Sequence record: NC_019723.1 | Direction: 5' to 3' (one strand) | Length of the DNA stretch: 47,090 nucleotides | Origin: Escherichia phage HK630 | Shown here: one piece after another, positions 32,628-47,090 of the stretch | Layout of the letters: each line of letters starts with the position of its first letter | Numbering within the stretch: the stretch's first letter is position 1 | Made by a program: the position numbers and the translations under genes | The notes under the pieces: generated by a model | Databases searched by the model: none | Seen by the model: the letters and a program-made list of their open reading frames with translations, nothing else | Told to the model about the DNA's origin: nothing

Positions 32628-33044
32628 TTATACCTCTGAATCAATATCAACCTGGTGGTGAGCAATGGTTTCAACCATGTACCGGATGTGTTCTGCCATG
32701 CGCTCCTGAAACTCAACATCGTCATCAAACGCACGGGTAATGGATTTTTTGCTGGCCCCGTGGCGTTGCAAATGATCGATGCATAGCGATTCAAACAGGT
32801 GCTGGGGCAGGCCTTTTTCCATGTCGTCTGCCAGTTCTGCCTCTTTCTCTTCACGGGCGAGCTGCTGGTAGTGACGCGCCCAGCTCTGAGCCTCAAGACG
32901 ATCCTGAATGTAATAAGCGTTCATGGCTGAACTCCTGAAATAGCTGTGAAAATATCGCCCGCGAAATGCCGGGCTGATTAGGAAAACAGGAAAGGGGGTT
33001 AGTGAATGCTTTTGCTTGATCTCAGTTTCAGTATTAATATCCAT
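32628..33044 (-). CDS. gam: Gam (RecBCD inhibitor)
   Basis: 138-aa [62 protein letters not shown]..., lambda Gam. Confidence 0.95.
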
Positions 33045-33142
33045 TTTTTATAAGCGTCGACGGCTTCACGAAACATCTTTTCATCGCCAATAAAAGTGGC
33101 GATAGTGAATTTAGTCTGGATAGCCATAAGTGTTTGATCCAT
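32999..33142 (-). CDS. kil: Kil host-killing protein
   Basis: 47 aa [47 protein letters not shown] within the longer ORF-track frame. Confidence 0.8.
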
Positions 33143-33275
33143 TCTTTGGGACTCCTGGCTGATTAAGTATGTCGATAAGGCGTTTCCATCCGTCACGTAA
33201 TTTACGGGTGATTCGTTCAAGTAAAGATTCGGAAGGGCAGCCAGCAACAGGCCACCCTGCAATGGCATATTGCAT
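33111..33275 (-). CDS. cIII: CIII (FtsH inhibitor)
   Basis: 54 aa [54 protein letters not shown], identical to recalled lambda CIII. Confidence 0.93.
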   Translation of the reverse strand: MQYAIAGWPVAGCPSESLLERITRKLRDGWKRLIDILNQPGVPKNGSNTYGYPD

Positions 33276-33333
33276 GGTGTGCTCCTTATTTATACATAAC
33301 GGAAAACGCCTCTCGTGAAGCGTTATTGGTATG

Positions 33334-33362
33334 CATATAAAAAGGCCCTCACATTGGAGGGC
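33334..33362 (-). terminator. rho-independent terminator upstream of cIII in the leftward operon (tL2-like)
   Basis: Stem GCCCTC/GAGGGC (33345-33350 / 33357-33362) with a 6-nt loop, followed on the minus strand by a T-run. Confidence 0.5.
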
Positions 33363-33572
33363 AAAGAAGATTTCCAATAATCAGAACAAGTCGGCTCCTG
33401 TTTAGTTACGAGCGACATTGCTCCGTGTATTCACTCATTGGAATGAATACACAGTGCAGTGTTTATTCGTATGCCTGTCTTTTAACCACATCAGGCTCGG
33501 TGGTTCTCGTGTACCCCTACAGCGAGAAAAATAGTAAAATCCTCTTACCCCTACAGTAAGAGAGTAATTTAT

Positions 33573-34067
33573 ATGGATGTGTTATCTGGTATAACTGCCG
33601 CGAAACAGGCTTATGATCTGCTGAAGACAATAAAAGAAACCAGAGACGATGCTGTTATCGCTAAAGCTATTGGTGATCTACACCAAAGAATAACTGACTT
33701 ACAGATGCTTAATGCGGAGCTCTCTGGCCTTTATCAGGCCGAGAAGGAGATCGCAATGAAGCTTCGAGATGAAAATAGAAAAATCAAGATGTTTGTTGTG
33801 CAAGCTGAGAATTATGAACTTCATACAACTGAAGGTGGTTCTGTCGTGTATCGACCTAAGAGTCATTCCGATCATTCTATTCAGCAGCATAACCTTTGTG
33901 CACATTGCTTCGGCGAACATAAAATATCGATACTTCAACCAAGCACGGTTACTATAAAATCTAATGGATTCTTTGTGCATTCATGTCCTCGCTGTAAGAA
34001 TGAATACCGGATGTATAGAGCGCCAGACCCTAAGCCTGTATATGTACCGCCGCTGACAAATTATTAA
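33573..34067 (+). CDS. hypothetical coiled-coil / zinc-ribbon protein, transcribed opposite to the pL operon
   Basis: 164-aa ORF with SD AAGAGAG 8 nt upstream of ATG; helical heptad-like N-terminus; C-terminal CAHC...CPRC pairs; no lambda gene recognised here. Confidence 0.6.
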   Translation: MDVLSGITAAKQAYDLLKTIKETRDDAVIAKAIGDLHQRITDLQMLNAELSGLYQAEKEIAMKLRDENRKIKMFVVQAENYELHTTEGGSVVYRPKSHSDHSIQQHNLCAHCFGEHKISILQPSTVTIKSNGFFVHSCPRCKNEYRMYRAPDPKPVYVPPLTNY

Positions 34068-34097
34068 TTTTATTCCTGAAATGGCCTCTTCACCCCC

Positions 34098-34460
34098 TTA
34101 CTTTGTCAGGGGGATATCTCCTTCAGTTTTGACCATTCGCCTTAATACTTTCCTTAAGTCGATGTAAAGTTGAAGGTCTCCATTTGCTGCGGCATCAGCC
34201 ATTTTTTGCCTGACAAGCAGTAATGTTTCATACGGCTCAATAAGAATATCGTCATGAGTAATTAGGTGAAGCGTTGCCGCATCAACTATTCCTAGAGCTG
34301 CGCCAAGTATCAAAAATTCCCTGCTATTTTTGTCGCATGAGGAGATAAGCGTATTTAGCGCATACCTAATATTCTTTATAGCTGTTGTTAATGCTGCAAT
34401 TTCTTCTATGGCGTCTTCTCCAATGAGCTTTTTAAGCTCATATTTTTCTTCCTGACCCAT
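34098..34460 (-). CDS. hypothetical protein immediately downstream of N (position of lambda sieB)
   Basis: 120 aa from ATG 34460 (MGQEEKYELKKLIGEDAIEEIAALT...) with GAGGT SD; starts 3 nt after the N stop; not hydrophobic, so unlike SieB. Confidence 0.55.
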   Translation of the reverse strand: MGQEEKYELKKLIGEDAIEEIAALTTAIKNIRYALNTLISSCDKNSREFLILGAALGIVDAATLHLITHDDILIEPYETLLLVRQKMADAAANGDLQLYIDLRKVLRRMVKTEGDIPLTK

Positions 34461-34462
34461 AA

Positions 34463-34735
34463 TTACCTCGCCGTCAGTTGTTTTGATTTCCGGTAGCCTG
34501 CCGCGTAAATGGCTACGTTTGGCAGGCAAATACTTCCACTGCATTCTTCTGCCTTCTTGCAGCGAATGCTTCCGAGTGATGCTGCTTTATCTGCTCTGAC
34601 GCAACCAGAGAGCTTTAGCGCAATTTTTCGCGCCAGTCGCTGCTCTTGCATTGCCTGTTCACGTTGAGCCTGTCTGCGTGCTCTGCGGCGATTTCTGGCG
34701 TTATCGTCAGCCAGATATGTAATGACTACTGTCAT
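34463..34735 (-). CDS. N: N-like transcription antiterminator
   Basis: 90 aa; arginine-rich motif NARNRRRARRQAQREQ near the N-terminus; C-terminus ...LPNVAIYAAGYRKSKQLTAR resembles recalled P22 gp24; GGAGG SD; nut site downstream. Confidence 0.75.
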   Translation of the reverse strand: MTVVITYLADDNARNRRRARRQAQREQAMQEQRLARKIALKLSGCVRADKAASLGSIRCKKAEECSGSICLPNVAIYAAGYRKSKQLTAR

Positions 34736-34839
34736 GTTGACCTCCGATGATTGACTTTGGCGGTGACGCGCCGGGTGCTTATCTTCAGGTTGCCGTCGTG
34801 CAGCTGCACTTCACGTCACCCCAAAGCCAACTACTCTTT

Positions 34840-34885
34840 GGTTCCCGCATTTCGGCGGGACAATCCCATCAATGTTAAAGAGCCT
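34840..34885 (-). promoter_or_regulatory. nutL: nutL (boxA GCTCTTTAAC, boxB hairpin CCCGC-CGAAAU-GCGGG)
   Basis: On the leftward transcript, boxA-like CTCTTTAAC followed by a 5-bp stem/6-nt loop hairpin; the same boxB recurs at nutR. Confidence 0.65.
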
Positions 34886-34924
34886 GCCAATCTGTTCCGT
34901 TTGGCTTCCAGCGTCCTGCTGATG

Positions 34925-35035
34925 GCTAAAGAATACTGTAGGTATTTTATTGTGTAAATACCCAAGGTATTTATTTTTGATGAAATAATGATAAACAAAT
35001 GAATACAAAGGATATTTATTTTTTCGCTGTCTGCT
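34925..35035 (-). promoter_or_regulatory. OL / pL operator-promoter region
   Basis: Perfect 19-bp palindrome TAAATACCCAAGGTATTTA (34955-34973) plus imperfect copies GAATACTGTAGGTATTT (34931-34947) and GAATACAAAGGATATT; upstream of nutL and N. Confidence 0.6.
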
Positions 35036-35102
35036 TGTTCAGTGATTTTTATGCGGGATATGTGAAGTGGATCCCGATAGCTATTGCTGCCGGGATTATG
35101 GG

Positions 35103-35471
35103 TTAGTCAGCGAAGGTTAAGACGAGAATTACCTTAATGATGTCTGCTACAACAGACACGGCCATAGATAAACCAAAGACGATCCAAGCCACAGTGATGT
35201 CTTCACTACCATCGTATAGAGTTCCGTAATCACTGGTGTAAGGCGTAAATGTCGCGCCTTGATACAATAGGTATAAGCTTGATCCATAGAGGATAAATGC
35301 AGATATCCCTTGTATTGCTATGATCACAAGAATCATGAAACGAGCTGATCTATGCGCCCAAGCCTGGCTTATTTTTTCTGATAGAGATTTCGCAATAAAA
35401 GCATGCGCTAAGACGTAAATTGTCGAGATTGCCAACATCCCAAAAAAGCTTGCTATAGCGGTTCCAACCAT
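35103..35471 (-). CDS. hypothetical integral membrane protein co-transcribed with cI (position of rexAB)
   Basis: 122 aa from ATG 35471 (a TTG at 35492 would give 129 aa); about 3 predicted TM segments; AAGGGG SD; begins 18 nt after the cI stop. Confidence 0.65.
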   Translation of the reverse strand: MVGTAIASFFGMLAISTIYVLAHAFIAKSLSEKISQAWAHRSARFMILVIIAIQGISAFILYGSSLYLLYQGATFTPYTSDYGTLYDGSEDITVAWIVFGLSMAVSVVADIIKVILVLTFAD

Positions 35472-35488
35472 AATCGCCCCTTGCGTGA

Positions 35489-36205
35489 TCAAACCAGCCT
35501 TAGTTTTGTCTCAATTGCAACGCCTATAATCTTGCAGTTTCCATTGATTGGCACGAGAGGCCATGCAGGATTAAGTCCCTTGAGGTATTTATTTCCGCCG
35601 TCGATTATCAGCTTCTTGAATGTTGCTTCGTTAGAGTCAGAAAGTTTTGCTATGACCAAGCTGCCGTTGATCGCCTCCCTTCCGGTATCGAAAAGAACGA
35701 ATGTTCCCTCTGGAATGCTTAACCCAACCGGTGCCGTCATTGAATCACCTTCCACTTTAAGCCAGAACGCATTACCTTGAATATGCGCGTCAGACTCAAG
35801 CCAAACATCTATGTCTTTAATGGTGTATGGTTCGCATGCTTCACACCACGAGCCAGCCTGGATACTGCTTAACACCGGATACCTCTTTCCTGCTCTGTAT
35901 TCCCCTGCATACCTTACGTTGGCATCGCTCTTAAGGCTTTCTGCCTGTTCTGCAACCTTGGCAACAATTGACTGGCTAAAATCAGCAATAGAGACTTGCA
36001 ACAATCGTGCAAAACCAGATGCAACCTCAACGTTTAGCGCGTTTCTGCCATTAAGATAATGCCCTACCGCTCCTTGGGTGATACCCAGTTCATCAGCGAT
36101 TGAGTATTGGGTTATTCCCAATTCTTTCTTTTTTGACTCATACAAAGCCTTAAGCCGCTTAGCGTCTTCGAGCTGTTCTGTCGTCAGTGATTTTTTATTT
36201 TCCAT
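35489..36205 (-). CDS. cI: CI-family repressor (HTH N-domain + LexA/S24-like C-domain), non-lambda immunity
   Basis: 238 aa MENKKSLTTEQLEDAKRLKALYESKKKELGITQ...; C-terminal ...WLKVEGDSMTAPVGLSIPEGTFVLFD...ATFKKL... resembles CI/C2 autocleavage domains. Confidence 0.9.
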   Translation of the reverse strand: MENKKSLTTEQLEDAKRLKALYESKKKELGITQYSIADELGITQGAVGHYLNGRNALNVEVASGFARLLQVSIADFSQSIVAKVAEQAESLKSDANVRYAGEYRAGKRYPVLSSIQAGSWCEACEPYTIKDIDVWLESDAHIQGNAFWLKVEGDSMTAPVGLSIPEGTFVLFDTGREAINGSLVIAKLSDSNEATFKKLIIDGGNKYLKGLNPAWPLVPINGNCKIIGVAIETKLRLV

Positions 36206-36300
36206 AGCTTAATTCTAATAGCTAAGGTACTTAAACTAAAAATACCCTGAGTATTGATTGCTTTGAATACCTGTAGTATTCTTTGTTCATGGTTAATAAC
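36206..36300. promoter_or_regulatory. OR operators with divergent pRM/pR
   Basis: Operator-like palindromes AAATACCCTGAGTATT (36238-36257) and GAATACCTGTAGTATTC (36264-36283) between divergent cI and cro, same half-site as OL. Confidence 0.6.
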
Positions 36301-36311
36301 GGAGAGTGCAT

Positions 36312-36506
36312 ATGATTCGAATGACACTTGCCGATTACGCCAAAATCCATGGACAGGCTAAAGCAGCCAGTGACTTTGGTGTAATCCAGTGCGCTATCAG
36401 CAAGGCCATTCTGGCAGGCCGTAACATCATGGTTACGGTAAAGCCTGATGGCAGTGTGATTGGAGAGGAAGTTCGTCCTTTCCCAAGCAACAAGAAAAAC
36501 AAATAG
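36312..36506 (+). CDS. cro: Cro-like repressor
   Basis: 64 aa [64 protein letters not shown], similar to lambda Cro in the HTH and C-terminal PFPSNKK; GGAGAG SD. Confidence 0.88.
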
Positions 36507-36511
36507 TAACA

Positions 36512-36561
36512 CCGCTCTTTAACAGTCATGGTCCTCATTCCCGCCGAAATGCGGGAATACA
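36512..36561 (+). promoter_or_regulatory. nutR: nutR (boxA CGCTCTTTAA, boxB hairpin identical to nutL)
   Basis: CGCTCTTTAA at 36512-36521 and hairpin TCCCGCCGAAATGCGGGAA at about 36540-36560, between cro and cII. Confidence 0.65.
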
Positions 36562-36614
36562 ACGCGCATAAGTTGATGCGCATAACTTCTTATTTGTTAA
36601 GGAAATACTTACAT

Positions 36615-36893
36615 ATGCAACTTACAAGTACTCGCAAGAAAGCGAATGCAATTACAAGCAACATCCTAAATCGAATTGCTGTACGTGGTCAGCGAAAGGT
36701 TGCTGATGCATTAGGGATCAATGAATCGCAAATTTCGCGATGGAAAGACAGCTTTATCCCAAAGATGGCCATGCTTCTGGCTGTGCTGGAGTGGGGTGTT
36801 GAAGACGAGGAGTTGGCGGAACTGGCTAAGAAAGTAGCCAGAATGCTGACAAAAGAAAAAGCCCCGAAGAACGGCGAATTCTTCGAGGCCTAA
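36615..36893 (+). CDS. cII: CII-like transcriptional activator
   Basis: 92 aa from ATG 36615; ...[45 protein letters not shown] closely matches recalled lambda CII ([25 protein letters not shown]). Confidence 0.88.
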
Positions 36894-36927
36894 TGTAGAA
36901 AGACTGGATCAATCCACGGGAGTAATT

Positions 36928-37074
36928 ATGACAAAACAACTCAGTCCTTACCAGGACAAAATTCACAAACACATACTACGTGATCGCTTCCTGTCCAGCT
37001 TCAAGCAGCCTGGTCGATTCCGGGCTGAGTTGGAAAAAGTGAAGCTGATGCAGAAGGAGAAAGGTCATGAGTAA
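36928..37074 (+). CDS. small basic hypothetical protein (48 aa) overlapping the O start
   Basis: ATG 36928 with GGAG 8 nt upstream; [48 protein letters not shown]; below the ORF-track size cutoff. Confidence 0.35.
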
Positions 37075-37966
37075 CATATCTAATCTAGCCGAAGCCAGAG
37101 AGGCCAGAAGGCTACAACAACCGCATCAAAGCAGCGGTAAGGGGTATGCCTTGCTGCACCGTAAAATTATGGATGTGCCGTTTTACAAGGACGCAGAAGC
37201 AGCGCATCTGTGGGTTCACTTAATTCTCAAAGCAAAGCATACGCCTGAGTATGTAATGACTGACGCAGGAGAAATTCTGGTAGGCAGAGGGAAGCTACTT
37301 GGCGGTAGAAACTCTCTGGCGTTTGAAACAGGACTCAAACCAGATCGCGTTCAGTACCTGCTTAGAAAGTTCAAAAAACTCGGCATGATTGACTGGGTTT
37401 CACACGGTAAATTCTCAGTTTTCTCGGTAGAGAAATATGACGATTATCAGTCAAATTTTGTACCAGCAGATTACCAGCAAATTACCACCTCAAAGCCAGC
37501 AATACCAATGCCTGTAAGCAATACTGTACCAGCAGATTACCAGCAAATTACCACAGATAAAGAATATAATAATATTATCTCTAATACTGACGTATTAGAG
37601 AGTGCCACAGTAGACAAAAAGTCTGACAAGAAAAAACCTTCCGTTAGCTGTCAGGATGTTGTCGATGCTTACCACGAAATCCTTCCTGAAGCGCCAAAAA
37701 TCCGCGCACTGAATGACAAGCGTAAAAACCAGATCCGAACGTTCTGGCGCAAAGCCGGAGTGATAACCCGCCAGCTTGACGGGCATGGGTTCACGATGCA
37801 GGACTGGAGAAATTATTTGATCTACGTAGGCGAAAATTGCCGATGGATGTTCGAAGAACGCCCAAACCATCAACGCGGAACCGTCTGGCACAAAAAGGGA
37901 TTTGATTTCCTGCTTAACGACAATACCTACCTGAAAGTTCGTGAGGGTGAACACGATGACCGATAA
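37067..37966 (+). CDS. O: replication initiator (O-like), iterons embedded in the coding sequence
   Basis: 299-aa ORF at the position of lambda O; the internal direct repeats encode the duplicated [10 protein letters not shown] peptide. Confidence 0.8.
37460..37600. repeat. ori: replication origin: two 29-bp direct repeats (six ~11-bp TACCAGCA iterons) plus AT-rich stretch
   Basis: GTACCAGCAGATTACCAGCAAATTACCAC at 37460-37488 and 37526-37554, followed by AGATAAAGAATATAATAATATTATCTCTAATA. Confidence 0.65.
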
Positions 37967-39392
37967 TTTTTATGCGCCGCCCCATAGCATCGAGGCAGAG
38001 CAGGCGGTGATTGGTGGATTGCTTCTGGATGATGACAGCAGTGAGCGCGTCCAGAAAGTTCTGGCGATGCTGAAGCCTGACTCATTTTACAGCCGGCCAC
38101 ACAAAATCCTTTTCGAAGAAATAACCAGAATGCACCGGGAGCAAAAGCCAGTAGATGGCCTGACGCTTTTCGATGAACTGGAGCGTAAATCGTTAACGGC
38201 GTCTGTTGGCGGTTTTGCTTATATCGCTGAGATCGCAAAGAACACGCCGAGCGCCGCAAACATCGTTGCCTATGCAATGCAGGTTCGTGAAACCGCAATG
38301 GAACGCTACGCCATCAACCGCATGACTGAAGCGACGGAATTGCTCTATTCCCGCAACGGAATGACTGCAACGCAGAAGTACGAAGCTATTCAGGCGATTT
38401 TCACGCAACTGACAGACCATGCAAAAACCGGATCGCGTCGCGGCCTTCGCTCATTTGGTGAGGTCATGGAAGACTGGGTTAGCGACCTTGAGAAGCGATT
38501 TGACCCGTCAGGCGAACAGCGAGGAATGAGCACAGGGATCCCATCGCTGGACAGGATGCTGTCACCGAAAGGTCTGGTGAAAGGTTCTCTGTTTGTCATT
38601 GGCGCTCGCCCTAAGATGGGGAAAACGACGCTATACAGCCAGATGGCAATCAACTGCGCAGTGCATGAGAAAAAGCCCGCTCTGATGTTCAGCCTTGAAA
38701 TGCCAGGTGACCAGATACTGGAAAAACTGGTAGGGCAGAAGTCTGGTGTTAACCCGAATATTTTTTACCTTCCGGCGACAAATGACGCTGATGACGGCTA
38801 TCAGGGTGATTACGATGGTGACTTCAACAGGGCGATCGAAACAGCCAATCGCTTGAGTGAAATCGACATGCTTTACATCGACGACACGCCGGGATTATCT
38901 CTGGCTCAAATCGTCAGCGAAAGCCGTCGAATCAAGCGAGAAAAAGGATGTGTTGGCATGATTCTGGTCGATTACCTGACACTAATGACCGCTGAAAAGG
39001 CCGATCGCAACGACCTTGCTTACGGCATGATCACCAAAGGACTGAAGAACCTTGCCAAAGAGCTTGATTGCGTTGTTGTGCTTCTGACGCAGCTTAACCG
39101 CGCATTGGAAAGCAGAACCAATAAACGCCCATTACCAAGTGACTCACGAGATACAGGGCAGATTGAACAGGATTGCGATTATTGGGTGGGGATCCATCGT
39201 GAAGGCGCTTTTGATGACAGTGTTCCACCTGGTGAAACTGAACTAATCCTTCGTCTCAATCGTCATGGCAATACCGGCACGGTGTATTGCATTCAGGCAA
39301 ATGGCGCTATTTATGACACCGACCAACAGTCTGCTGAAATGCGCCGCCGTGAACGCGAGGAACCGCAGTCCAAGAAGAAAGGAGGATTCTGA
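37956..39392 (+). CDS. DnaB-family replicative helicase
   Basis: 478 aa from ATG 37956, overlapping the O stop; Walker A GARPKMGKTT and DnaB-like N-domain (SIEAEQAVIGGLLLD). Confidence 0.85.
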   Translation: MTDNFYAPPHSIEAEQAVIGGLLLDDDSSERVQKVLAMLKPDSFYSRPHKILFEEITRMHREQKPVDGLTLFDELERKSLTASVGGFAYIAEIAKNTPSAANIVAYAMQVRETAMERYAINRMTEATELLYSRNGMTATQKYEAIQAIFTQLTDHAKTGSRRGLRSFGEVMEDWVSDLEKRFDPSGEQRGMSTGIPSLDRMLSPKGLVKGSLFVIGARPKMGKTTLYSQMAINCAVHEKKPALMFSLEMPGDQILEKLVGQKSGVNPNIFYLPATNDADDGYQGDYDGDFNRAIETANRLSEIDMLYIDDTPGLSLAQIVSESRRIKREKGCVGMILVDYLTLMTAEKADRNDLAYGMITKGLKNLAKELDCVVVLLTQLNRALESRTNKRPLPSDSRDTGQIEQDCDYWVGIHREGAFDDSVPPGETELILRLNRHGNTGTVYCIQANGAIYDTDQQSAEMRRREREEPQSKKKGGF

Positions 39393-39420
39393 TGACCATC
39401 TACATCACTGAGCTAATAAC

Positions 39421-39453
39421 AGGCCTGCTGGTAATCGCAGGCCTTTTTATTTG
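39421..39453 (+). terminator. rho-independent terminator after the helicase gene (tR2-like)
   Basis: Stem AGGCCTGC/GCAGGCCT with 8-nt loop followed by TTTTTATTT. Confidence 0.7.
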
Positions 39454-39467
39454 GGGGAGAGTAAATC

Positions 39468-39674
39468 GTGGCTGAGTTGATTTTCTCTGCATTGAGGATT
39501 CTCGGTGCTATGTGGATGGTGGCGACGTTCATTGTGGTTGCCAGCAGTTTTGTCCGGTTGGTAGGCGAAGGTAAAGACCTGGTTGGTGTGCTTTTCGGTA
39601 GCATTTTTCTGTGGGTGATTATCGGTGTTATGCCTGTCGCTGTAGCAAAAATGGCGTGGCGTTTTGTTAGTTGA
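39468..39674 (+). CDS. hypothetical small two-TM membrane protein
   Basis: 68-aa ORF from GTG 39468 with GGGGAGAG SD; two hydrophobic helices, basic C-terminus KMAWRFVS. Confidence 0.5.
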   Translation: MAELIFSALRILGAMWMVATFIVVASSFVRLVGEGKDLVGVLFGSIFLWVIIGVMPVAVAKMAWRFVS

Positions 39675-39681
39675 GGTGACA

Positions 39682-40092
39682 ATGAAGCAAACAATCTTCC
39701 TCCGAACTAAGCAACAACAGCAAGCTGCAATAAATGCCATCCTCGCAACACCACTCGATAAAGACAAGCCAGTCACCATCCGCATTACTGACTACAAGCG
39801 CAACCTTGACCAGAACGCAAAATTTCACGTGATGCTGGCGGATATCGCTCGTCAGGTTCAATGGTGCGGCAAATGGTTAAAACCGGAACAATGGAAGGTT
39901 TTGTTGATCAGCGGTCATGCAGTGGCTACAAAGCAGGAAGCTGATGTTTTGCCCGGCCTTGAAGGCGAATACGTCAACATTCGCGAAAGCAGCGCGCAGA
40001 TGAGCGTGAAGCGCATGGCAAGCCTGATTGAGTACACGACAGCATGGGCTATTGGTCAGGGTGTCAGATTTACCGACAGGAGGTACGAATGA
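39682..40092 (+). CDS. ninB: NinB (Orf-family recombination mediator) homologue
   Basis: 136 aa from ATG 39682 with GAGGTGA SD; ...[27 protein letters not shown]... resembles recalled lambda NinB (RSLDQNRKLWACLGDVSRQVEWHGRWL) but is divergent. Confidence 0.75.
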
Positions 40093-40265
40093 GACGACAG
40101 CGACGAAGTTTCACCGACATCATCTGCGAAAACTGCAAATACCTTCCAACGAAGCGCTCCAGAAATAAACGCAAGCCAATCCCAAAAGAATCTGACGTAA
40201 AAACCTTCAACTACACGGCTCACCTGTGGGATATCCGGTGGCTAAGACATCGTGCGAGGAAATGA
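40089..40265 (+). CDS. ninE: NinE
   Basis: 58 aa [58 protein letters not shown]; ATGA overlap with the ninB stop. Confidence 0.8.
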
Positions 40266-40669
40266 CAATGCTTTTAATTCAACCTGGATTTGGCCTTAGC
40301 ATCAAAAAAGGGCACATGTTTGGCGAGAAAGAGTCTCAACGAAAAATGGTGTCTATCCAGTTGCCATTTATCAGTATTTTATGGCTAAACAGGGAGGCAA
40401 CAAATTATTGGTATACATGCGCCAGAGCAGCATTTAACGACCCTGACTGGTTTGTGGAAAACCACCACGCAGTTCGTCAGGCAAAGAGAAAGGCCAATAC
40501 GACATACATGAAGGCGTATCGAAAAGCATGGAAAGAACACCGCGATCGATACCAACAAGACATGGAAAAACTTGAATCAGAAAACATGGAATTAAGACGA
40601 AAGCTTGGTGAAGCAAAACGAGACATTGATGCTTACAAGCGACTTTTTAATGGTGAAAGCCATGCTTAG
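40262..40669 (+). CDS. hypothetical protein between ninE and ninF (NinX-like position)
   Basis: 135 aa from ATG 40262 (ATGA overlap with the ninE stop); C-terminal coiled-coil-like region; absent from lambda. Confidence 0.55.
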
Positions 40670-40838
40670 CCCATCCCAATACATTCAATACCAGAAAGAA
40701 AGCGTCGAGCGGGCTTTAACGTGCGCTAACTGCGGTCAGAAGCTGCATGTGCTGGAAGTTCACGTGTGTGAGCACTGCTGCGCAGAACTGATGAGCGATC
40801 CGAATAGCTCGATGCACGAGGAAGAAGATGATGGCTAA
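40662..40838 (+). CDS. ninF: NinF
   Basis: 58 aa [58 protein letters not shown], near-identical to recalled lambda NinF. Confidence 0.8.
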
Positions 40839-41442
40839 ACCAGCGCGAAGACGATGTAAAAACGATGAATGCCGGGAATGGTTTCACCCTGCATTCGCTA
40901 ATCAGTGGTGGTGCTCTCCAGAGTGTGGAACCAAGATAGCACTCGAACGACGAAGTAAAGAACGCGAAAAAGCGGAAAAAGCAGCAGAGAAGAAACGACG
41001 ACGAGAGGAGCAGAAACAGAAAGATAAACTTAAGATTCGAAAACTCGCCTTAAAGCCCCGCAGTTACTGGATTAAACAAGCCCAACAAGCCGTAAACGCC
41101 TTCATCAGAGAAAGAGACCGCGACTTACCATGTATCTCGTGCGGAACGCTCACGTCTGCTCAGTGGGATGCCGGACATTACCGGACAACTGCTGCGGCAC
41201 CTCAACTCCGATTTAATGAACGCAATATTCACAAGCAATGCGTGGTGTGCAACCAGCACAAAAGCGGAAATCTCGTTCCGTATCGCGTCGAACTGATTAG
41301 CCGCATCGGGCAGGAAGCAGTAGACGAAATCGAATCAAACCATAACCGCCATCGCTGGACTATCGAAGAGTGCAAGGCGATCAAGGCAGAGTACCAACAG
41401 AAACTCAAAGACCTGCGAAATAGCAGAAGTGAGGCCGCATGA
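40828..41442 (+). CDS. ninG: NinG (Rap-like Holliday junction endonuclease)
   Basis: 204-aa ORF with Cys clusters, lambda NinG position. Confidence 0.88.
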
Positions 41443-41645
41443 CGTTCTCAGTAAAAACCATTCCAGACATGCTCGTTGAAGCATACGGAAATCAGACAGA
41501 AGTAGCACGCAGACTGAAATGTAGTCGCGGTACGGTCAGAAAATACGTTGATGATAAAGACGGGAAAATGCACGCCATCGTCAACGACGTTCTCATGGTT
41601 CATCGCGGATGGAGTGAAAGAGATGCGCTATTACGAAAAAATTGA
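41439..41645 (+). CDS. ninH: NinH
   Basis: 68-aa ORF overlapping the ninG stop. Confidence 0.8.
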
Positions 41646-42288
41646 TGGCAGCAAATACCGAAATATTTGGGTAGTTGGCGATCTGCACGGATGCTACACG
41701 AACCTGATGAACAAACTGGATACGATTGGATTCGACAACAAAAAAGACCTGCTTATCTCGGTGGGCGATTTGGTTGATCGTGGTGCAGAGAACGTTGAAT
41801 GCCTGGAATTAATCACATTCCCCTGGTTCAGAGCTGTACGTGGAAACCATGAGCAAATGATGATTGATGGCTTATCAGAGCGTGGAAACGTTAATCACTG
41901 GCTGCTTAATGGCGGTGGCTGGTTCTTTAATCTCGATTACGACAAAGAAATTCTGGCTAAAGCTCTTGCCCATAAAGCAGATGAACTTCCGTTAATCATC
42001 GAACTGGTGAGCAAAGATAAAAAATATGTTATCTGCCACGCCGATTATCCCTTTGACGAATACGAGTTTGGAAAGCCAGTTGATCATCAGCAGGTAATCT
42101 GGAACCGCGAACGAATCAGCAACTCACAAAACGGGATCGTGAAAGAAATCAAAGGCGCGGACACGTTCATCTTTGGTCATACGCCAGCAGTGAAACCACT
42201 CAAGTTTGCCAACCAAATGTATATCGATACCGGCGCAGTGTTCTGCGGAAACCTAACATTGATTCAGGTACAGGGAGAAGGCGCATGA
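41623..42288 (+). CDS. ninI: Ser/Thr protein phosphatase NinI
   Basis: 221 aa from [25 protein letters not shown]...; metallophosphatase motifs GDLHG, GDLVDRG, GNHE. Confidence 0.9.
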
Positions 42289-42908
42289 GACTCGAAAGCG
42301 TAGCTAAATTTCATTCGCCAAAAAGCCCGATGATGAGCGACTCACCACGGGCCACGGCTTCTGACTCTCTTTCCGGTACTGATGTGATGGCTGCTATGGG
42401 GATGGCGCAATCACAAGCCGGATTCGGTATGGCTGCATTCTGCGGTAAGCACGAACTCAGCCAGAACGACAAACAAAAGGCTATCAACTATCTGATGCAA
42501 TTTGCACACAAGGTATCGGGGAAATACCGTGGTGTGGCAAAGCTTGAAGGAAATACTAAGGCAAAGGTACTGCAAGTGCTCGCAACATTCGCTTATGCGG
42601 ATTATTGCCGTAGTGCCGCGACGCCGGGGGCAAGATGCAGAGATTGCCATGGTACAGGCCGTGCGGTTGATATTGCCAAAACAGAGCTGTGGGGGAGAGT
42701 TGTCGAGAAAGAGTGCGGAAGATGCAAAGGCGTCGGCTATTCAAGGATGCCAGCAAGCGCAGCATATCGCGCTGTGACGATGCTAATCCCAAACCTTACC
42801 CAACCCACCTGGTCACGCACTGTTAAGCCGCTGTATGACGCTCTGGTGGTGCAATGCCACAAAGAAGAGTCAATCGCAGACAACATTTTGAATGCGGTCA
42901 CACGTTAG
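42285..42908 (+). CDS. Q: late gene antiterminator Q
   Basis: 207-aa ORF with zinc-binding CRDCHGTG...CGRCKG, lambda Q. Confidence 0.93.
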
Positions 42909-42951
42909 CAGCATGATTGCCACGGATGGCAACATATTAACGGCATGATAT

Positions 42952-42980
42952 TGACTTATTGAATAAAATTGGGTAAATTT
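42952..42980 (+). promoter_or_regulatory. late promoter pR' (-35 TTGACT, 17-nt spacer, -10 TAAATT), overlapping qut
   Basis: TTGACTtattgaataaaattgggTAAATT about 45 nt after the Q stop; position matches lambda pR'. Confidence 0.75.
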
Positions 42981-42986
42981 GACTCA

Positions 42987-43180
42987 ACGATGGGTTAATT
43001 CGCTCGTTGTGGTAGTGAGATGAAAAGAGGCGGCGCTTACTACCGATTCCGCCTAGTTGGTCACTTCGACGTATCGTCTGGAACTCCAACCATCGCAGGC
43101 AGAGAGGTCTGCAAAATGCAATCCCGAAACAGTTCGCAGGTAATAGTTAGAGCCTGCATAACGGTTTCGGGATTTTTTAT
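42987..43180 (+). ncRNA. 6S late leader RNA (pR' to tR')
   Basis: Interval from the predicted pR' start to the strong terminator hairpin ending about 43180. Confidence 0.55.
43122..43180 (+). terminator. tR' rho-independent terminator
   Basis: Long inverted repeat TCCCGAAAC...GTTTCGGGA followed by TTTTTTAT. Confidence 0.8.
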
Positions 43181-43584
43181 ATCTGCACAACAGGTAAGAG
43201 CATTGAGTCGATAATCGTGAAGAGTCGGCGAGCCTGGTTAGCCAGTGCTCTTTCCGTTGTGCTGAATTAAGCGAATACCGGAAGCAGAACCGGATCACCA
43301 AATGCGTACAGGCGTCATCGCCGCCCAGCAACAGCACAACCCAAACTGAGCCGTAGCCACTGTCTGTCCTGAATTCATTAGTAATAGTTACGCTGCGGCC
43401 TTTTACACATGACCTTCGTGAAAGCGGGTGGCAGGAGGTCGCGCTAACAACCTCCTGCCGTTTTGCCCGTGCATATCGGTCACGAACAAATCTGATTACT
43501 AAACACAGTAGCCTGGATTTGTTCTATCAGTAATCGACCTTATTCCTAATTAAATAGAGCAAATCCCCTTATTGGGGGTAAGAC

Positions 43585-43908
43585 ATGAAGATGCCAGAAA
43601 AACATGACCTGTTGGCCGCCATTCTCGCGGCAAAGGAACAAGGCATCGGGGCAATCCTTGCGTTTGCAATGGCGTACCTTCGCGGCAGATATAATGGCGG
43701 TGCGTTTACAAAAACAGTAATCGACGCAACGATGTGCGCCATTATCGCCTGGTTCATTCGTGACCTTCTCGACTTCGCCGGACTAAGTAGCAATCTCGCT
43801 TATATAACGAGCGTGTTTATCGGCTACATCGGTACTGACTCGATTGGTTCGCTTATCAAACGCTTCGCTGCTAAAAAAGCCGGAGTAGAAGATGGTAGAA
43901 ATCAATAA
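43585..43908 (+). CDS. S: holin S (S107/S105 dual start)
   Basis: 107 aa [34 protein letters not shown]... with Met1 and Met3 starts and three TM segments. Confidence 0.95.
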
Positions 43909-44368
43909 TCAACGTAAGGCGTTCCTCGATATGCTGGCGTGGTCGGAGGGAACTGATAACGGACGTCAGAAAACCAGAAATCATGGTTATGACGTCATTG
44001 TAGGCGGAGAGCTATTCACTGATTACTCCGATCACCCTCGCAAACTTGTCACGCTAAACCCAAAACTCAAATCAACAGGCGCCGGACGCTACCAGCTTCT
44101 TTCCCGTTGGTGGGATGCCTACCGCAAGCAGCTTGGCCTGAAAGACTTCTCTCCGAAAAGTCAGGACGCTGTGGCATTGCAGCAGATTAAGGAGCGTGGC
44201 GCTTTACCTATGATTGATCGTGGTGATATCCGTCAGGCAATCGACCGTTGCAGCAATATCTGGGCTTCACTGCCGGGCGCTGGTTATGGTCAGTTCGAGC
44301 ATAAGGCTGACAGCCTGATTGCAAAATTCAAAGAAGCGGGCGGAACGGTCAGAGAGATTGATGTATGA
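43892..44368 (+). CDS. R: endolysin R (lytic transglycosylase)
   Basis: 158-aa [38 protein letters not shown]..., overlapping the S stop. Confidence 0.95.
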
Positions 44369-44826
44369 GCAGAGTCACCGCGATTATCTCCGCTCTGGTT
44401 ATCTGCATCATCGTCTGCCTGTCATGGGCTGTTAATCATTACCGTGATAACGCCATTACCTACAAAGCCCAGCGCGACAAAAATGCCAGAGAACTGAAGC
44501 TGGCGAACGCGGCAATTACTGACATGCAGATGCGTCAGCGTGATGTTGCTGCGCTCGATGCAAAATACACGAAGGAGTTAGCTGATGCTAAAGCTGAAAA
44601 TGATGCTCTGCGTGATGATGTTGCCGCTGGTCGTCGTCGGTTGCACATCAAAGCAGTCTGTCAGTCAGTGCGTGAAGCCACCACCGCCTCCGGCGTGGAT
44701 AATGCAGCCTCCCCCCGACTGGCAGACACCGCTGAACGGGATTATTTCACCCTCAGAGAGAGGCTGATCACTATGCAAAAACAACTGGAAGGAACCCAGA
44801 AGTATATTAATGAGCAGTGCAGATAG
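44365..44826 (+). CDS. Rz: spanin inner-membrane subunit Rz
   Basis: 153-aa ORF with N-terminal TM and coiled-coil. Confidence 0.93.
44585..44767 (+). CDS. Rz1: spanin outer-membrane lipoprotein Rz1 (embedded in Rz, +1 frame)
   Basis: 60 aa with lipobox LVVVGC and a Pro-rich segment, nested entirely inside Rz. Confidence 0.88.
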
Positions 44827-44857
44827 AGTTGCCCATATCGATGGGCAACTCATGCAA

Positions 44858-45151
44858 TTATTGTGAGCAATACACACGCGCTTCCAGCGGAGTATAAATG
44901 CCTAAAGTAATAAAACCGAGCAATCCATTTACGAATGTTTGCTGGGTTTCTGTTTTAACAACATTTTCTGCGCCGCCACAAATTTTGGCTGCATCGACAG
45001 TTTTCTTCTGCCCAATTCCAGAAACGAAGAAATGATGGGTGATGGTTTCCTTTGGTGCTACTGCTGCCGGTTTGTTTTGAACAGTAAACGTCTGTTGAGC
45101 ACATCCTGTAATAAGCAGGGCCAGCGCAGTAGCGAGTAGCATTTTTTTCAT
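44858..45151 (-). CDS. bor: Bor lipoprotein (serum resistance)
   Basis: 97 aa MKKMLLATALALLITGCAQQTF... with lipobox, lambda Bor. Confidence 0.93.
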   Translation of the reverse strand: MKKMLLATALALLITGCAQQTFTVQNKPAAVAPKETITHHFFVSGIGQKKTVDAAKICGGAENVVKTETQQTFVNGLLGFITLGIYTPLEARVYCSQ

Positions 45152-45440
45152 GGTGTTATTCCCGATGCTTTTTGAAGTTCGCAGAATCGTATGTGTAGAA
45201 AATTAAACAAACCCTAAACAATGAGTTGAAATTTCATATTGTTAATATTTATTAATGTATGTCAGGTGCGATGAATCGTCATTGTATTCCCGGATTAACT
45301 ATGTCCACAGCCCTGACGGGGAACTTCTCTGCGGGAGTGTCCGGGAATAATTAAAACGATGCACACAGGGTTTAGCGCGTACACGTATTGCATTATGCCA
45401 ACGCCCCGGTGCTGACACGGAAGAAACCGGACGTTATGAT

Positions 45441-45974
45441 TTAGCGTGGAAAGATTTGTGTAGTGTTCTGAATGCTCTCAGTAAATAGTAATGAATTATC
45501 AAAGGTATAGTAATATCTTTTATGTTCATGGATATTTGTAACCCATCGGAAAACTCCTGCTTTAGCAAGATTTTCCCTGTATTGCTGAAATGTGATTTCT
45601 CTTGATTTCAACCTATCATAGGACGTTTCTATAAGATGCGTGTTTCTTGAGAATTTAACATTTACAACCTTTTTAAGTCCTTTTATTAACACGGTGTTAT
45701 CGTTTTCTAACACGATGTGAATATTATCTGTGGCTAGATAGTAAATATAATGTGAGACGTTGTGACGTTTTAGTTCAGAATAAAACAATTCACAGTCTAA
45801 ATCTTTTCGCACTTGATCGAATATTTCTTTAAAAATGGCAACCTGAGCCATTGGTAAAACCTTCCATGTGATACGAGGGCGCGTAGTTTGCATTATCGTT
45901 TTTATCGTTTCAATCTGGTCTGACCTCCTTGTGTTTTGTTGATGATTTATGTCAAATATTAGGAATGTTTTCAC
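45441..45974 (-). CDS. hypothetical protein (lambda right-arm ORF, putative envelope protein)
   Basis: 177-aa AT-rich ORF between bor and cos. Confidence 0.6.
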
Positions 45975-46136
45975 TTAATAGTATTGGTTGCGTAACAAAG
46001 TGCGGTCCTGCTGGCATTCTGGAGGGAAATACAACCGACAGATGTATGTAAGGCCAACGTGCTCAAATCTTCATACAGAAAGATTTGAAGTAATATTTTA
46101 ACCGCTAGATGAAGAGCAAGCGCATGGAGCGACAAA

Positions 46137-46343
46137 ATGAATAAAGAACAATCTGCTGATGATCCCTCCGTGGATCTGATTCGTGTAAAAAATATGCTTA
46201 ATAGCACCATTTCTATGAGTTACCCTGATGTTGTAATTGCATGTATAGAACATAAGGTGTCTCTGGAAGCATTCAGAGCAATTGAGGCAGCGTTGGTGAA
46301 GCACGATAATAATATGAAGGATTATTCCCTGGTGGTTGACTGA
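46137..46343 (+). CDS. hypothetical protein (lambda right-arm ORF)
   Basis: 68-aa ORF. Confidence 0.45.
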
Positions 46344-46507
46344 TCACCATAACTGCTAATCATTCAAACTATTTAGTCTGTGACAGAGCCAACACGCAGT
46401 CTGTCACTGTCAGGAAAGTGGTAAAACTGCAACTCAATTACTGCAATGCCCTCGTAATTAAGTGAATTTACAATATCGTCCTGTTCGGAGGGAAGAACGC
46501 GGGATGT

Positions 46508-46702
46508 TCATTCTTCATCACTTTTAATTGATGTATATGCTCTCTTTTCTGACGTTAGTCTCCGACGGCAGGCTTCAATGACCCAGGCTGAGAAATTCCC
46601 GGACCCTTTTTGCTCAAGAGCGATGTTAATTTGTTCAATCATTTGGTTAGGAAAGCGGATGTTGCGGGTTGTTGTTCTGCGGGTTCTGTTCTTCGTTGAC
46701 AT
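46508..46702 (-). CDS. small ribbon-helix-helix-like DNA-binding protein
   Basis: 64 aa; basic N-terminus then RNIRFPNQMIEQINIALEQKG...FSAWVIEACRRRL, a beta-strand/helix/helix pattern typical of Arc/CopG-type proteins. Confidence 0.45.
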   Translation of the reverse strand: MSTKNRTRRTTTRNIRFPNQMIEQINIALEQKGSGNFSAWVIEACRRRLTSEKRAYTSIKSDEE

Positions 46703-46869
46703 GAGGTTGCCCCGTATTCAGTGTCGCTGATTTGTATTGTCTGAAGTTGTTTTTACGTTAAGTTGATGCAGATCAATTAATACGATACCTGCGTCATAAT
46801 TGATTATTTGACGTGGTTTGATGGCCTCCACGCACGTTGTGATATGTAGATGATAATCATTATCACTTT

Positions 46870-47090
46870 ACGGGTCCTTTCCGGTGATCCGACAGGTTAC
46901 GGGGCGGCGACCTCGCGGGTTTTCGCTATTTATGAAAATTTTCCGGTTTAAGGCGTTTCCGTTCTTCTTCGTCATAACTTAATGTTTTTATTTAAAATAC
47001 CCTCTGAAAAGAAAGGAAACGACAGGTGCTGAAAGCGAGCTTTTTGGCCTCTGTCGTTTCCTTTCTCTGTTTTTGTCCGTGGAATGAACA
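46870..47090. other. cos: cos region (nick-site overhang GGGCGGCGACCT at 46902-46913, plus flanking terminase-binding sequence)
   Basis: Exact lambda left-end sequence GGGCGGCGACCTCGCGGGTTTTCGCTATTTATGAAAATTTTCCGG... begins at 46902 and runs to the window end, joining the Nu1 start at position 1. Confidence 0.9.

Follow-up and report, generated by a model that had tools for sequence, protein, structure and literature searches.

Escherichia phage HK630 raises the question of how a phage with a lambda backbone starts its replication when the O and P genes of lambda have been replaced. The window analysed here, the whole stretch of 47,090 nucleotides in sequence record NC_019723.1, is lambda backbone with an HK620-like immunity and replication segment: HK629 and lambda match its left arm at 100% identity, and its replication segment is closest to HK620. 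We conclude with high confidence that the replication module is of the HK022/HK620/VT2-Sakai type of lambdoid phages, and corresponds in function to P22 genes 18 and 12. DNA identity to the HK620, HK022, mEp235 and VT2-Sakai group is 98-99.6% over 36900-39500, with the O/P region 99.6% identical to that of HK620, and the gene order equals the orf48-18(ori)-12-ninA order of P22, followed by a terminator. Such a module, in which origin repeats lie within the origin-binding gene and a phage DnaB-family helicase follows, is ordinary and already known; the reading of an in-gene origin with the phage's own helicase is given in PMC2669165, PMC8022706 and the GenBank records of HK620, VT2-Sakai, HK022 and P22. 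The module is present in 409 phage records and in 408 of 5426 complete E. coli genomes (~7.5%), and the searchable literature yielded no experiments on the O protein, origin or helicase of HK630.

The module opens with a 48-aa ORF on the plus strand (36928-37074), an orf48/hkaW homologue with DUF2740 (Pfam PF10872, E = 8.9e-29) that is 85% identical to P22 orf48 and is annotated as hkaW in HK620 and as H0097 in VT2-Sakai. It begins a string of translationally coupled replication genes, with an 8-nt overlap at the start of O. The module ends at a 27-aa ninA-like ORF (39392-39475, plus strand; PHROG 5907, E = 1.3e-18), where the HK620 record annotates ninA and tR2; a terminator scan placed the tR2 hairpin inside this ORF, at 39421-39444 with a T run, and the ninA/tR2 region is 98.6% identical to lambda 40566-40636. 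An orf48 upstream, a DnaB-family gene overlapping the preceding stop, and ninA with a terminator downstream are the parts of a P22-type module, and all are found here. An Rfam scan of 33000-41000 returned the lambda cIII thermoregulator element only, with nothing inside the module.

The O-like replication initiator (37067-37966, plus strand) is a protein of 299 aa that matches PHROG 345, ‘replication initiation O-like’ (E = 8.4e-86); its DNA is 99.6% identical to HK620 gene O. The best 120 homologues listed are all 85-100% identical, and the exact HK630 protein (P0028) is found on 41 contigs. Its layout comprises an N-terminal domain (residues ~1-131), a linker encoded by the repeats (~132-172) and a C-terminal domain (~173-299). 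Residues 1-144 gave no match to PF04492 (Phage_rep_O) even at E <= 1, whereas lambda O (5.7e-36) and P22 gp18 (6.9e-38) do match, and the N-domain matched no other Pfam or NCBIfam family. BLASTP of HK630 O against lambda O returned no match, no lambda O homologue was found in the window, and similarity to the N-domain of P22 gp18 was not detectable; when an HK630/HK629 N-domain profile was compared by hhalign with that of the lambda O and P22 gp18 N-domains, the probability was 0.3%, at which homology is not demonstrable. A PDB sequence search with O produced chance matches only (E of at least 0.5), and a single-sequence AlphaFold2 model, with a mean pLDDT of 43.7, was too poor to reveal a DNA-binding fold. 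Because the N-domain has neither a family nor detectable similarity to lambda O or P22 gp18, the label ‘initiator’ rests on position, on PHROG 345 and on the co-variation of N-domain and iterons described below.

Two exact copies of the 30-nt repeat TGTACCAGCAGATTACCAGCAAATTACCAC lie inside the O gene as iteron block 1 (37459-37488) and iteron block 2 (37525-37554), their starts 66 bp, or 6 x 11 bp, apart. Each block holds three units in 11-bp phase, TACCAGCAGAT, TACCAGCAAAT and a degenerate TACCAC (37483 and 37549), with TACCAGCA recurring at an 11-bp period at 37461 and 37472 and again at 37527 and 37538. The two strands of the 47-kb window together hold seven exact copies of TACCAGCA, four of them within the 85-nt iteron stretch. 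The HK620 rep_origin annotation maps in two pieces to HK630 37459-37554, and the VT2-Sakai features ‘ori iteron 1’ and ‘ori iteron 2’ map to the same two blocks; the origin assignment in these GenBank records is itself made by analogy. A reading of the DNA from sequence alone (hereafter the sequence-only reading) had described two 29-bp direct repeats of 11-bp-spaced iterons in the initiator gene; the number, place and spacing stand, and the length is corrected to exactly 30 nt.

Directly to the right of block 2 is an AT-rich tract (37555-37601), the presumed DNA-unwinding element, whose G+C content of 22% (measured over 37556-37600), against 50% in the window and 45% in the O gene, bears out the earlier placing of the in-gene iterons next to AT-rich DNA. 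The tract ends in a perfect 10+10 palindrome of 24 bp, TCTCTAATAC-gtca-GTATTAGAGA (37578-37601), which folds as single-stranded DNA at -8.6 kcal/mol (z = -5.0). Six units in 11-bp phase, grouped in two blocks beside an AT-rich tract, have the form of an iteron-type origin. To call this the classic lambdoid ori layout, as the sequence-only reading did, is right for the order of iterons, AT-rich tract and palindrome, but not for the parts themselves, as the 11-bp iterons repeat directly and have no dyad symmetry, unlike the ~18-19-bp palindromes of the lambda family, and the N-domain falls outside PF04492.

The repeats are also in frame, encoding the same 10-residue peptide twice (O residues 132-141 and 154-163), and their copy number changes in 22-codon steps, so they could be taken for a duplicated flexible peptide linker with no origin function, replication starting elsewhere. 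We consider this highly improbable. Across the units the same iteron 8-mer falls into each of the three codon phases, so that the peptide is not repeated at the 11-bp period, which argues for a role of the repeats as DNA, and the blocks adjoin the AT-rich tract and its palindrome in the manner of the lambda ori. HK629 and phage L, moreover, have a diverged N-domain and unrelated iterons and peptide in an identical 3 x 11 bp/66-bp layout (PMC8022706), and two distant phages have mid-gene repeats of their own, phased with a period of 10 bp in Ralstonia phage Firinga and direct, without clear helical phase, in Shewanella phage ZP9. Natural O alleles of 321 and 343 aa, which correspond to three and four copies of the 66-bp unit, also speak for such a role, and the DNA of L009 confirms one such multi-unit allele (period 66, 3.5 copies, 100% matches); possibly the presence of 2, 3 or 4 copies tunes the strength of the origin, or the incompatibility of prophages that share a cell.

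An origin function for the repeats also fits a comparison with phage HK629. The helicases of the two phages are identical at 477 of 478 residues and the C-terminal regions of O are nearly so, whereas the N-domain of HK629 O is only ~45% identical to that of HK630 and its iterons are TTGTCCAACGG, arranged in 3 x 11 bp blocks with a 66-bp period. DNA identity rises from ~55% to 93-100% at ~37563, just past iteron block 2. Iteron sequence thus co-varies with the N-domain, as in an iteron origin, and the combination of another N-domain and other iterons with the same C-domain and helicase speaks for each of the two domains of O having a task of its own. The six 11-bp repeats TGTCCAACGGA in gene 18 of phage L have likewise been taken as its origin (PMC8022706). 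An exact inverted copy of the iteron 11-mer, TGCTGGTAATC, in the tR2 terminator loop (39426-39436) was considered as a distal O site and rejected, because lambda, P22 and HK629 share the terminator sequence yet have other iterons.

The gene downstream of O encodes a DnaB-family replicative helicase, ‘P’, of 478 aa (37956-39392, plus strand), with a DnaB domain at the N-terminus and a RecA-like domain at the C-terminus. The ORF list starts it at GTG 37941, but all related records annotate ATG 37956, preceded by GAGGGTGA, and the latter is the more likely start; read from there, the gene overlaps O by 11 nt, the O stop TAA lying at 37964-37966. Pfam identified DnaB (PF00772, 3.4e-31; residues 13-117 of the 483-aa reading) and DnaB_C (PF03796, 2.8e-60), and the protein scored 583.8 bits against TIGR03600 phage_DnaB, over the curated whole-protein cut-off of 498.65, while staying short of those set for chromosomal DnaB equivalogs. 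Structures of E. coli DnaB were matched end to end at E = 1.9e-83, with 40.6% identity across 424 aligned residues. The claim of a full DnaB-family helicase overlapping the initiator stop had been made from the Walker A sequence GARPKMGKTT, and it holds on these wider grounds. All the conserved motifs whose loss would speak against it are kept: Walker A itself (38601-38630, residues 216-225; AARPSMGKTT in E. coli DnaB), the Walker B region ILVDYL (38961-38978; IMIDYL), the SQLNR-type motif TQLNR (39087-39101; SQLNR) and the arginine-containing motif RDTGQIEQDCD (within 39138-39179; RESGSIEQDAD), all on the plus strand. Alignment with P22 genes 18 and 12 had been proposed as a check. The gene 12 product proved to be of the same helicase family (31% identity, E = 3e-59), although further from the HK630 helicase than E. 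coli DnaB is, and gp18 proved to be related to HK630 O in the C-terminal domain only (25% identity over the C-terminal 135 aa, 144 aligned positions, E = 3e-4).

Similarity to host DnaB of this degree could in principle permit mixed oligomers. The phage protein might then not be the helicase of the fork but, much in the way of lambda P, a decoy or adaptor for capturing host DnaB, with mixed hexamers as one way of doing so. We give this explanation hardly any credence, as the catalytic motifs are all intact, the protein clears the cut-off of an equivalog-grade model for phage helicases, and its P22 counterpart is described as a DnaB-type helicase that is active as an ATPase and supports priming by DnaG (Wickner 1984, as summarised in PMC8022706). 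By analogy with the biochemistry of P22 gene 12, HK630 would use its own helicase instead of recruiting host DnaB.

DnaB-family rings generally need a loader. The sequence-only reading had held that no lambda P-like loader is encoded, and we found none: tblastn of the window with lambda P reached a best E of 0.17, and Pfam detected no DnaC/IstB-type domain in the ORFs scanned between 33573 and 40838, which cover the non-lambda segment apart from the cIII/kil region at its left edge. The remaining window is lambda DNA, and the lambda genome outside the replaced region has no annotated DnaC-type or P-like gene. The lack of a dedicated loader gene, together with a helicase nearer to E. coli DnaB than to P22 gp12, would suit a scheme in which it is host DnaC that opens the DnaB-like ring of the phage and places it on origin DNA bound by O, such that the module replaces host DnaB and not its loader. 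We think this unlikely, since the C-domain of O is paired and translationally coupled with a DnaB-type helicase in every sampled record whose adjoining gene could be identified, even in phages of Shewanella and Ralstonia, and P22 gp12 is not known to work through DnaC. The pairing was seen among the 106 phage records found by tblastn with the O C-domain, whose carriers range from enterobacterial to Shewanella and Ralstonia phages. Every sampled annotated row that names the adjoining gene (24 of 30 rows) gives a helicase or ‘P/gp12’; in Shewanella ZP9 and Ralstonia Firinga, two of the three distant rows that read only ‘hypothetical protein’, the next gene overlaps the stop and contains Pfam DnaB and DnaB_C, while the N-domains are unrelated. 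In all, the adjoining gene was identified in 26 of the 30 sampled records, with H75 and H79 (no annotation) and H86 (distant) left out. Such pairing across differing hosts points to direct contact between O and the helicase as the delivery route. We suggest, tentatively, that in its ~110-aa C-domain the initiator may have a fused loader of its own, which would deliver and perhaps open the helicase ring without any DnaC-, lambda P- or DciA-like protein.

In the mechanism that we propose, the N-domain of the 299-aa O protein would bind both iteron blocks, each with three direct 11-bp units, within the O gene itself, and the adjacent tract of 22% G+C would melt. The C-domain would recruit the hexameric phage DnaB-family helicase made from the next, translationally coupled gene, which would stand in for the host DnaB that lambda obtains through its P loader, and would then act together with the DnaG primase and DNA polymerase III of the host. 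Replication by this route would be independent of both host DnaB and host DnaC.

The main value of these results is for annotation, as HK630 can be described as a lambda-backbone phage in which an HK022/HK620-type origin and a DnaB-type helicase replace lambda O-P. An origin of this type with its own helicase predicts that the phage does not depend on host DnaB, and that it is insensitive to groP-type host mutations and to inhibition directed at the lambda ori. The same module replicates the Stx2 prophage Sp5/VT2-Sakai; because it is common among complete E. coli genomes and is carried by this prophage, a clean description of its parts is useful. The scheme is one of a variable N-domain matched to the iterons and a conserved C-domain matched to the helicase, and it does not constitute a new kind of system.

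Of the known systems, hkaW-O-P of HK620 (AF335538; Clark et al. 2001) is alike in gene order, in the two 30-nt blocks, in the helicase and in tR2, and the module recurs with only point differences in HK022 (gp53-54-55), mEp235 and VT2-Sakai/Sp5; some relatives carry three or four iteron units. The setting differs, as the HK630 module sits in a lambda backbone whereas HK620 has a P22-like and HK022 an HK97-like virion gene set. Initiators of the HK629/Sf6 gene 43/phage L gene 18 type have the O C-domain, the helicase and the two-block 3 x 11-bp layout in common with HK630, but differ in the N-domain and the iterons, with the mosaic joint at the ~37563 step in identity.

Lambda likewise has its origin inside the O gene, in the interdomain linker of a protein that is also 299 aa long, and its iterons, AT-rich tract and palindrome (28 bp, lambda 39162-39189) follow in the same order. 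Its O protein, however, is without sequence similarity to HK630 O, its iterons are four 18-19-bp palindromes in place of direct 11-bp repeats, and its P, a protein of 233 aa that loads host DnaB (PHROG 109), has no homologue in the HK630 window. In P22, the N-domain of gp18 belongs to PF04492 as does that of lambda O, unlike that of HK630, and the TCGGTAAAA-type iterons form inverted pairs unrelated to the HK630 iterons. Gene order and translational coupling are nevertheless identical in P22 and HK630, the C-domains of the two initiators are homologous, and gp18 and HK630 O both match PHROG 345 over their full length (7e-88 vs 8e-86).

The replication module of the window is that of HK620, HK022 and VT2-Sakai. 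Positions 36900-39500 are 99.6% identical to coliphage HK620 and 98-99% identical to HK022, mEp235, Stx2-converting phage 86, VT2-Sakai and many Stx phages; 409 phage records match this interval, and of 5426 complete E. coli genomes 408 carry the module. None of this is new, as database records and papers already contain the repeats, the origin assignment and a helicase of DnaB type. The two-piece rep_origin of the HK620 record maps onto 37459-37554, the VT2-Sakai record marks exactly the two 30-nt blocks as 'ori iteron 1' and 'ori iteron 2', and in the HK022 record the initiator gene reads 'similar to P22 gp18' and the helicase gene 'similar to P22 gp12; similar to DnaB'. The backbone is lambda: lambda 191-33522 (window 1-33334) and 42297-48502 (window 40696-46901) are present at 99.97% identity, with lambda 1-190 at the window end, while the segment for immunity and replication (33900-40262) matches HK620 at 98.4% identity. 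HK629 is 100% identical over the left 24 kb of the window and differs in its repressor and the N-domain of its initiator, O. A minus-strand match to the Rfam lambda cIII thermoregulator element (RF01804; 33230-33288, 88.5 bits) is expected, since the DNA is lambda-derived.

The replication genes form a string of four translationally coupled ORFs on the plus strand, namely a DUF2740 ORF (orf48/hkaW; 36928-37074, 48 aa), O (37067-37966, 299 aa), the helicase (37956-39392, 478 aa) and a ninA-like ORF (39392-39475, 27 aa), with successive overlaps of 8, 11 and 1 nt. An automatic ORF listing starts the helicase upstream, at GTG 37941; most likely the start is ATG 37956, which is preceded by GAGGGTGA and is chosen in every related GenBank record. 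The sequence-only reading had the helicase gene overlap the initiator stop, and from that ATG the overlap is 11 nt. The DUF2740 ORF lies in the early right operon between cII/oop and O, is 85% identical to P22 orf48, and is missing from lambda, while HK629 has an unrelated 53-aa ORF there. Its PHROG 1913 label, 'tail protein', which also appears in RefSeq phage annotations, looks like a mis-annotation. Its start is overlapped by the conserved 33-nt pO/oop 5' sequence ACTGGATCAATCCAC.GGAGTAATTATGACAAA (36903-36935), an arrangement described in 23 lambdoid phages (PMC3349717), and the oop-type antisense RNA terminator, a hairpin plus T run on the minus strand (36859-36891), overlaps the end of cII. 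Directly past tR2 lies a hydrophobic 68-aa ORF (39468-39674) with no Pfam match, which lacks annotation in the HK620 record; an E. coli prophage has a called gene of equal size in the same place (L009, 5034-5240). A 147-aa ORF between ninE and ninF (40226-40669) has no significant Pfam family, and the segment holding it (~40263-40695) has no match in lambda or in the HK620 stretch compared.

The presumed origin lies within the O gene. Two direct repeats of 29 bp had been proposed there; both copies are exact, but the repeat, TGTACCAGCAGATTACCAGCAAATTACCAC, is 30 nt long (37459-37488 and 37525-37554, spaced 66 bp). Each copy is composed of the 11-bp units TACCAGCAGAT, TACCAGCAAAT and TACCAC, which are direct repeats without dyad symmetry; four of the seven exact occurrences of TACCAGCA in the 47-kb window (both strands) fall in these repeats. 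The AT-rich tract noted beside them is present to the right, with 22% G+C at 37556-37600 against a window mean of 50%, and is closed by a perfect 10+10 palindrome (37578-37601). In the tR2 terminator loop (39426-39436) the iteron 11-mer GATTACCAGCA recurs exactly in inverted orientation, most likely a coincidence, because lambda, P22 and HK629 have the identical terminator sequence but other iterons.

The repeats are constrained at the DNA level: the codon phase of one and the same 8-mer changes from 2 to 1 to 3, and natural O alleles differ by whole 66-bp units. Alleles of 321 and 343 aa (proteins P0001, P0002 and P0025) differ solely by one or two additional units, each of three 11-bp iterons plus a 33-bp spacer, giving three or four copies where the window has two; four exact iteron blocks in the E. 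coli prophage (L009:2893-3120) confirm the extra units in DNA. A mere duplication of a peptide is a highly improbable reading of the repeats.

The downstream gene encodes a full DnaB-family helicase, as first supposed. Both Pfam DnaB domains are present, the NCBIfam model TIGR03600 ('phage replicative helicase, DnaB family') gives 583.8 bits against a cut-off of 498.65, and the protein aligns with E. coli DnaB structures over 440 residues (E = 1.9e-83, 40.6% identity), retaining the Walker A, Walker B, SQLNR-type and arginine-containing motifs. It is nearer to E. coli DnaB (283 bits) than to P22 gp12 (31% identity, 189 bits), and carries a ~10-residue insertion, PATNDADDGYQGDYDGD, relative to E. 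coli DnaB. Published work already divides the 'P' proteins of lambdoid prophages into loaders of lambda type, loaders of DnaC type and helicases of the DnaB family, with those of Sp5/VT2-Sakai and HK022 in the third class (PMC2669165), and Hayes and co-workers noted P analogues that code for a helicase of their own (PMC3640518). The suggested lack of a lambda P-like loader also held: tblastn of lambda P, O and ren against the window gave no homologue (best E = 0.17, also the best for P), and Pfam found no DnaC/IstB-type domain in ORFs scanned across the non-lambda segment (33573-40838), the rest being lambda DNA from outside O-P. By the precedent of P22 gene 12 (Wickner 1984, as cited in PMC8022706), the helicase would be independent of host DnaB; that it needs host DnaC we consider unlikely. 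In the most likely mechanism, O would bind the six phased iterons, the AT tract would open, the O C-domain would bring in the phage helicase, and host DnaG and DNA polymerase III would do the remainder.

Three observations support a model in which the N-domain of O would bind the iterons and its C-domain partner the helicase: the DNA-level constraint on the repeats, a domain swap in HK629, and the travelling of the C-domain with a helicase. HK629 reads as a natural swap. Its helicase matches at 477 of 478 residues and the post-origin part of its O is nearly identical, whereas its N-domain is ~45% identical and its iterons, laid out alike (3 x 11 bp, 66-bp period), have the sequence TTGTCCAACGG published for phage L (PMC8022706). 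DNA identity rises from ~55% to 93-100% at ~37563, directly past iteron block 2. Tblastn of the C-domain returned 106 phage records, of which 30 rows were sampled across the ranking; the adjoining gene was a helicase or 'P/gp12/gene 44' protein in all 24 rows whose annotation names it, and two rows (H75 and H79) carry no annotation. Three distant rows read just 'hypothetical protein', and two of them (all but H86) were opened, Shewanella phage ZP9 (38.5% identity) and Ralstonia phage Firinga (24.5%). Their initiators share only the C-terminal domain with O, the N-domains being unrelated (DUF6291, or none), and each initiator stop is overlapped by a gene with Pfam DnaB and DnaB_C domains. Both have their own mid-gene direct repeats, a 20-nt repeat plus TGATAG runs in ZP9 (L010:863-952) and GCAACGC with a 10-bp period in Firinga (L011:2240-2286). 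It is possible, if somewhat doubtful, that the conserved C-domain acts as a helicase loader fused to the initiator, which would dispense with DnaC or P.

O is less simple than its name implies: BLASTP gave no similarity to lambda O, and neither Pfam nor NCBIfam assigned it to a family with significance. PHROG 345 ('replication initiation O-like') spans the full length of both O and P22 gp18, while pairwise relation to gp18 is confined to the C-terminal ~135 residues (25% identity, E = 3e-4). PHROG 2514 ('DnaD-like helicase loader') is matched by O through its N-domain (profile positions 3-160) and by lambda O through its C-domain (88-269), so that some phages seem to join an N-domain like the window's to a C-domain like lambda's.

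Overall, the module resembles P22 18/12 in its probable way of working and the lambda ori in its layout. The suggested comparison with P22 genes 18 and 12 revealed the same order (orf48, gene 18 with its rep_origin inside, gene 12, ninA, terminator), with 25% identity at the O C-terminus and 31% in the helicase. Lambda O and P22 gp18 are both strong matches to PF04492 (Phage_rep_O) through their N-domains, whereas the N-terminal 144 residues of the window O gave no match to it even at E <= 1, and profile-profile comparison of its N-domain with theirs was negative. Lambda and P22 iterons are palindromic or in inverted pairs, whereas those of the window are direct 11-bp repeats.
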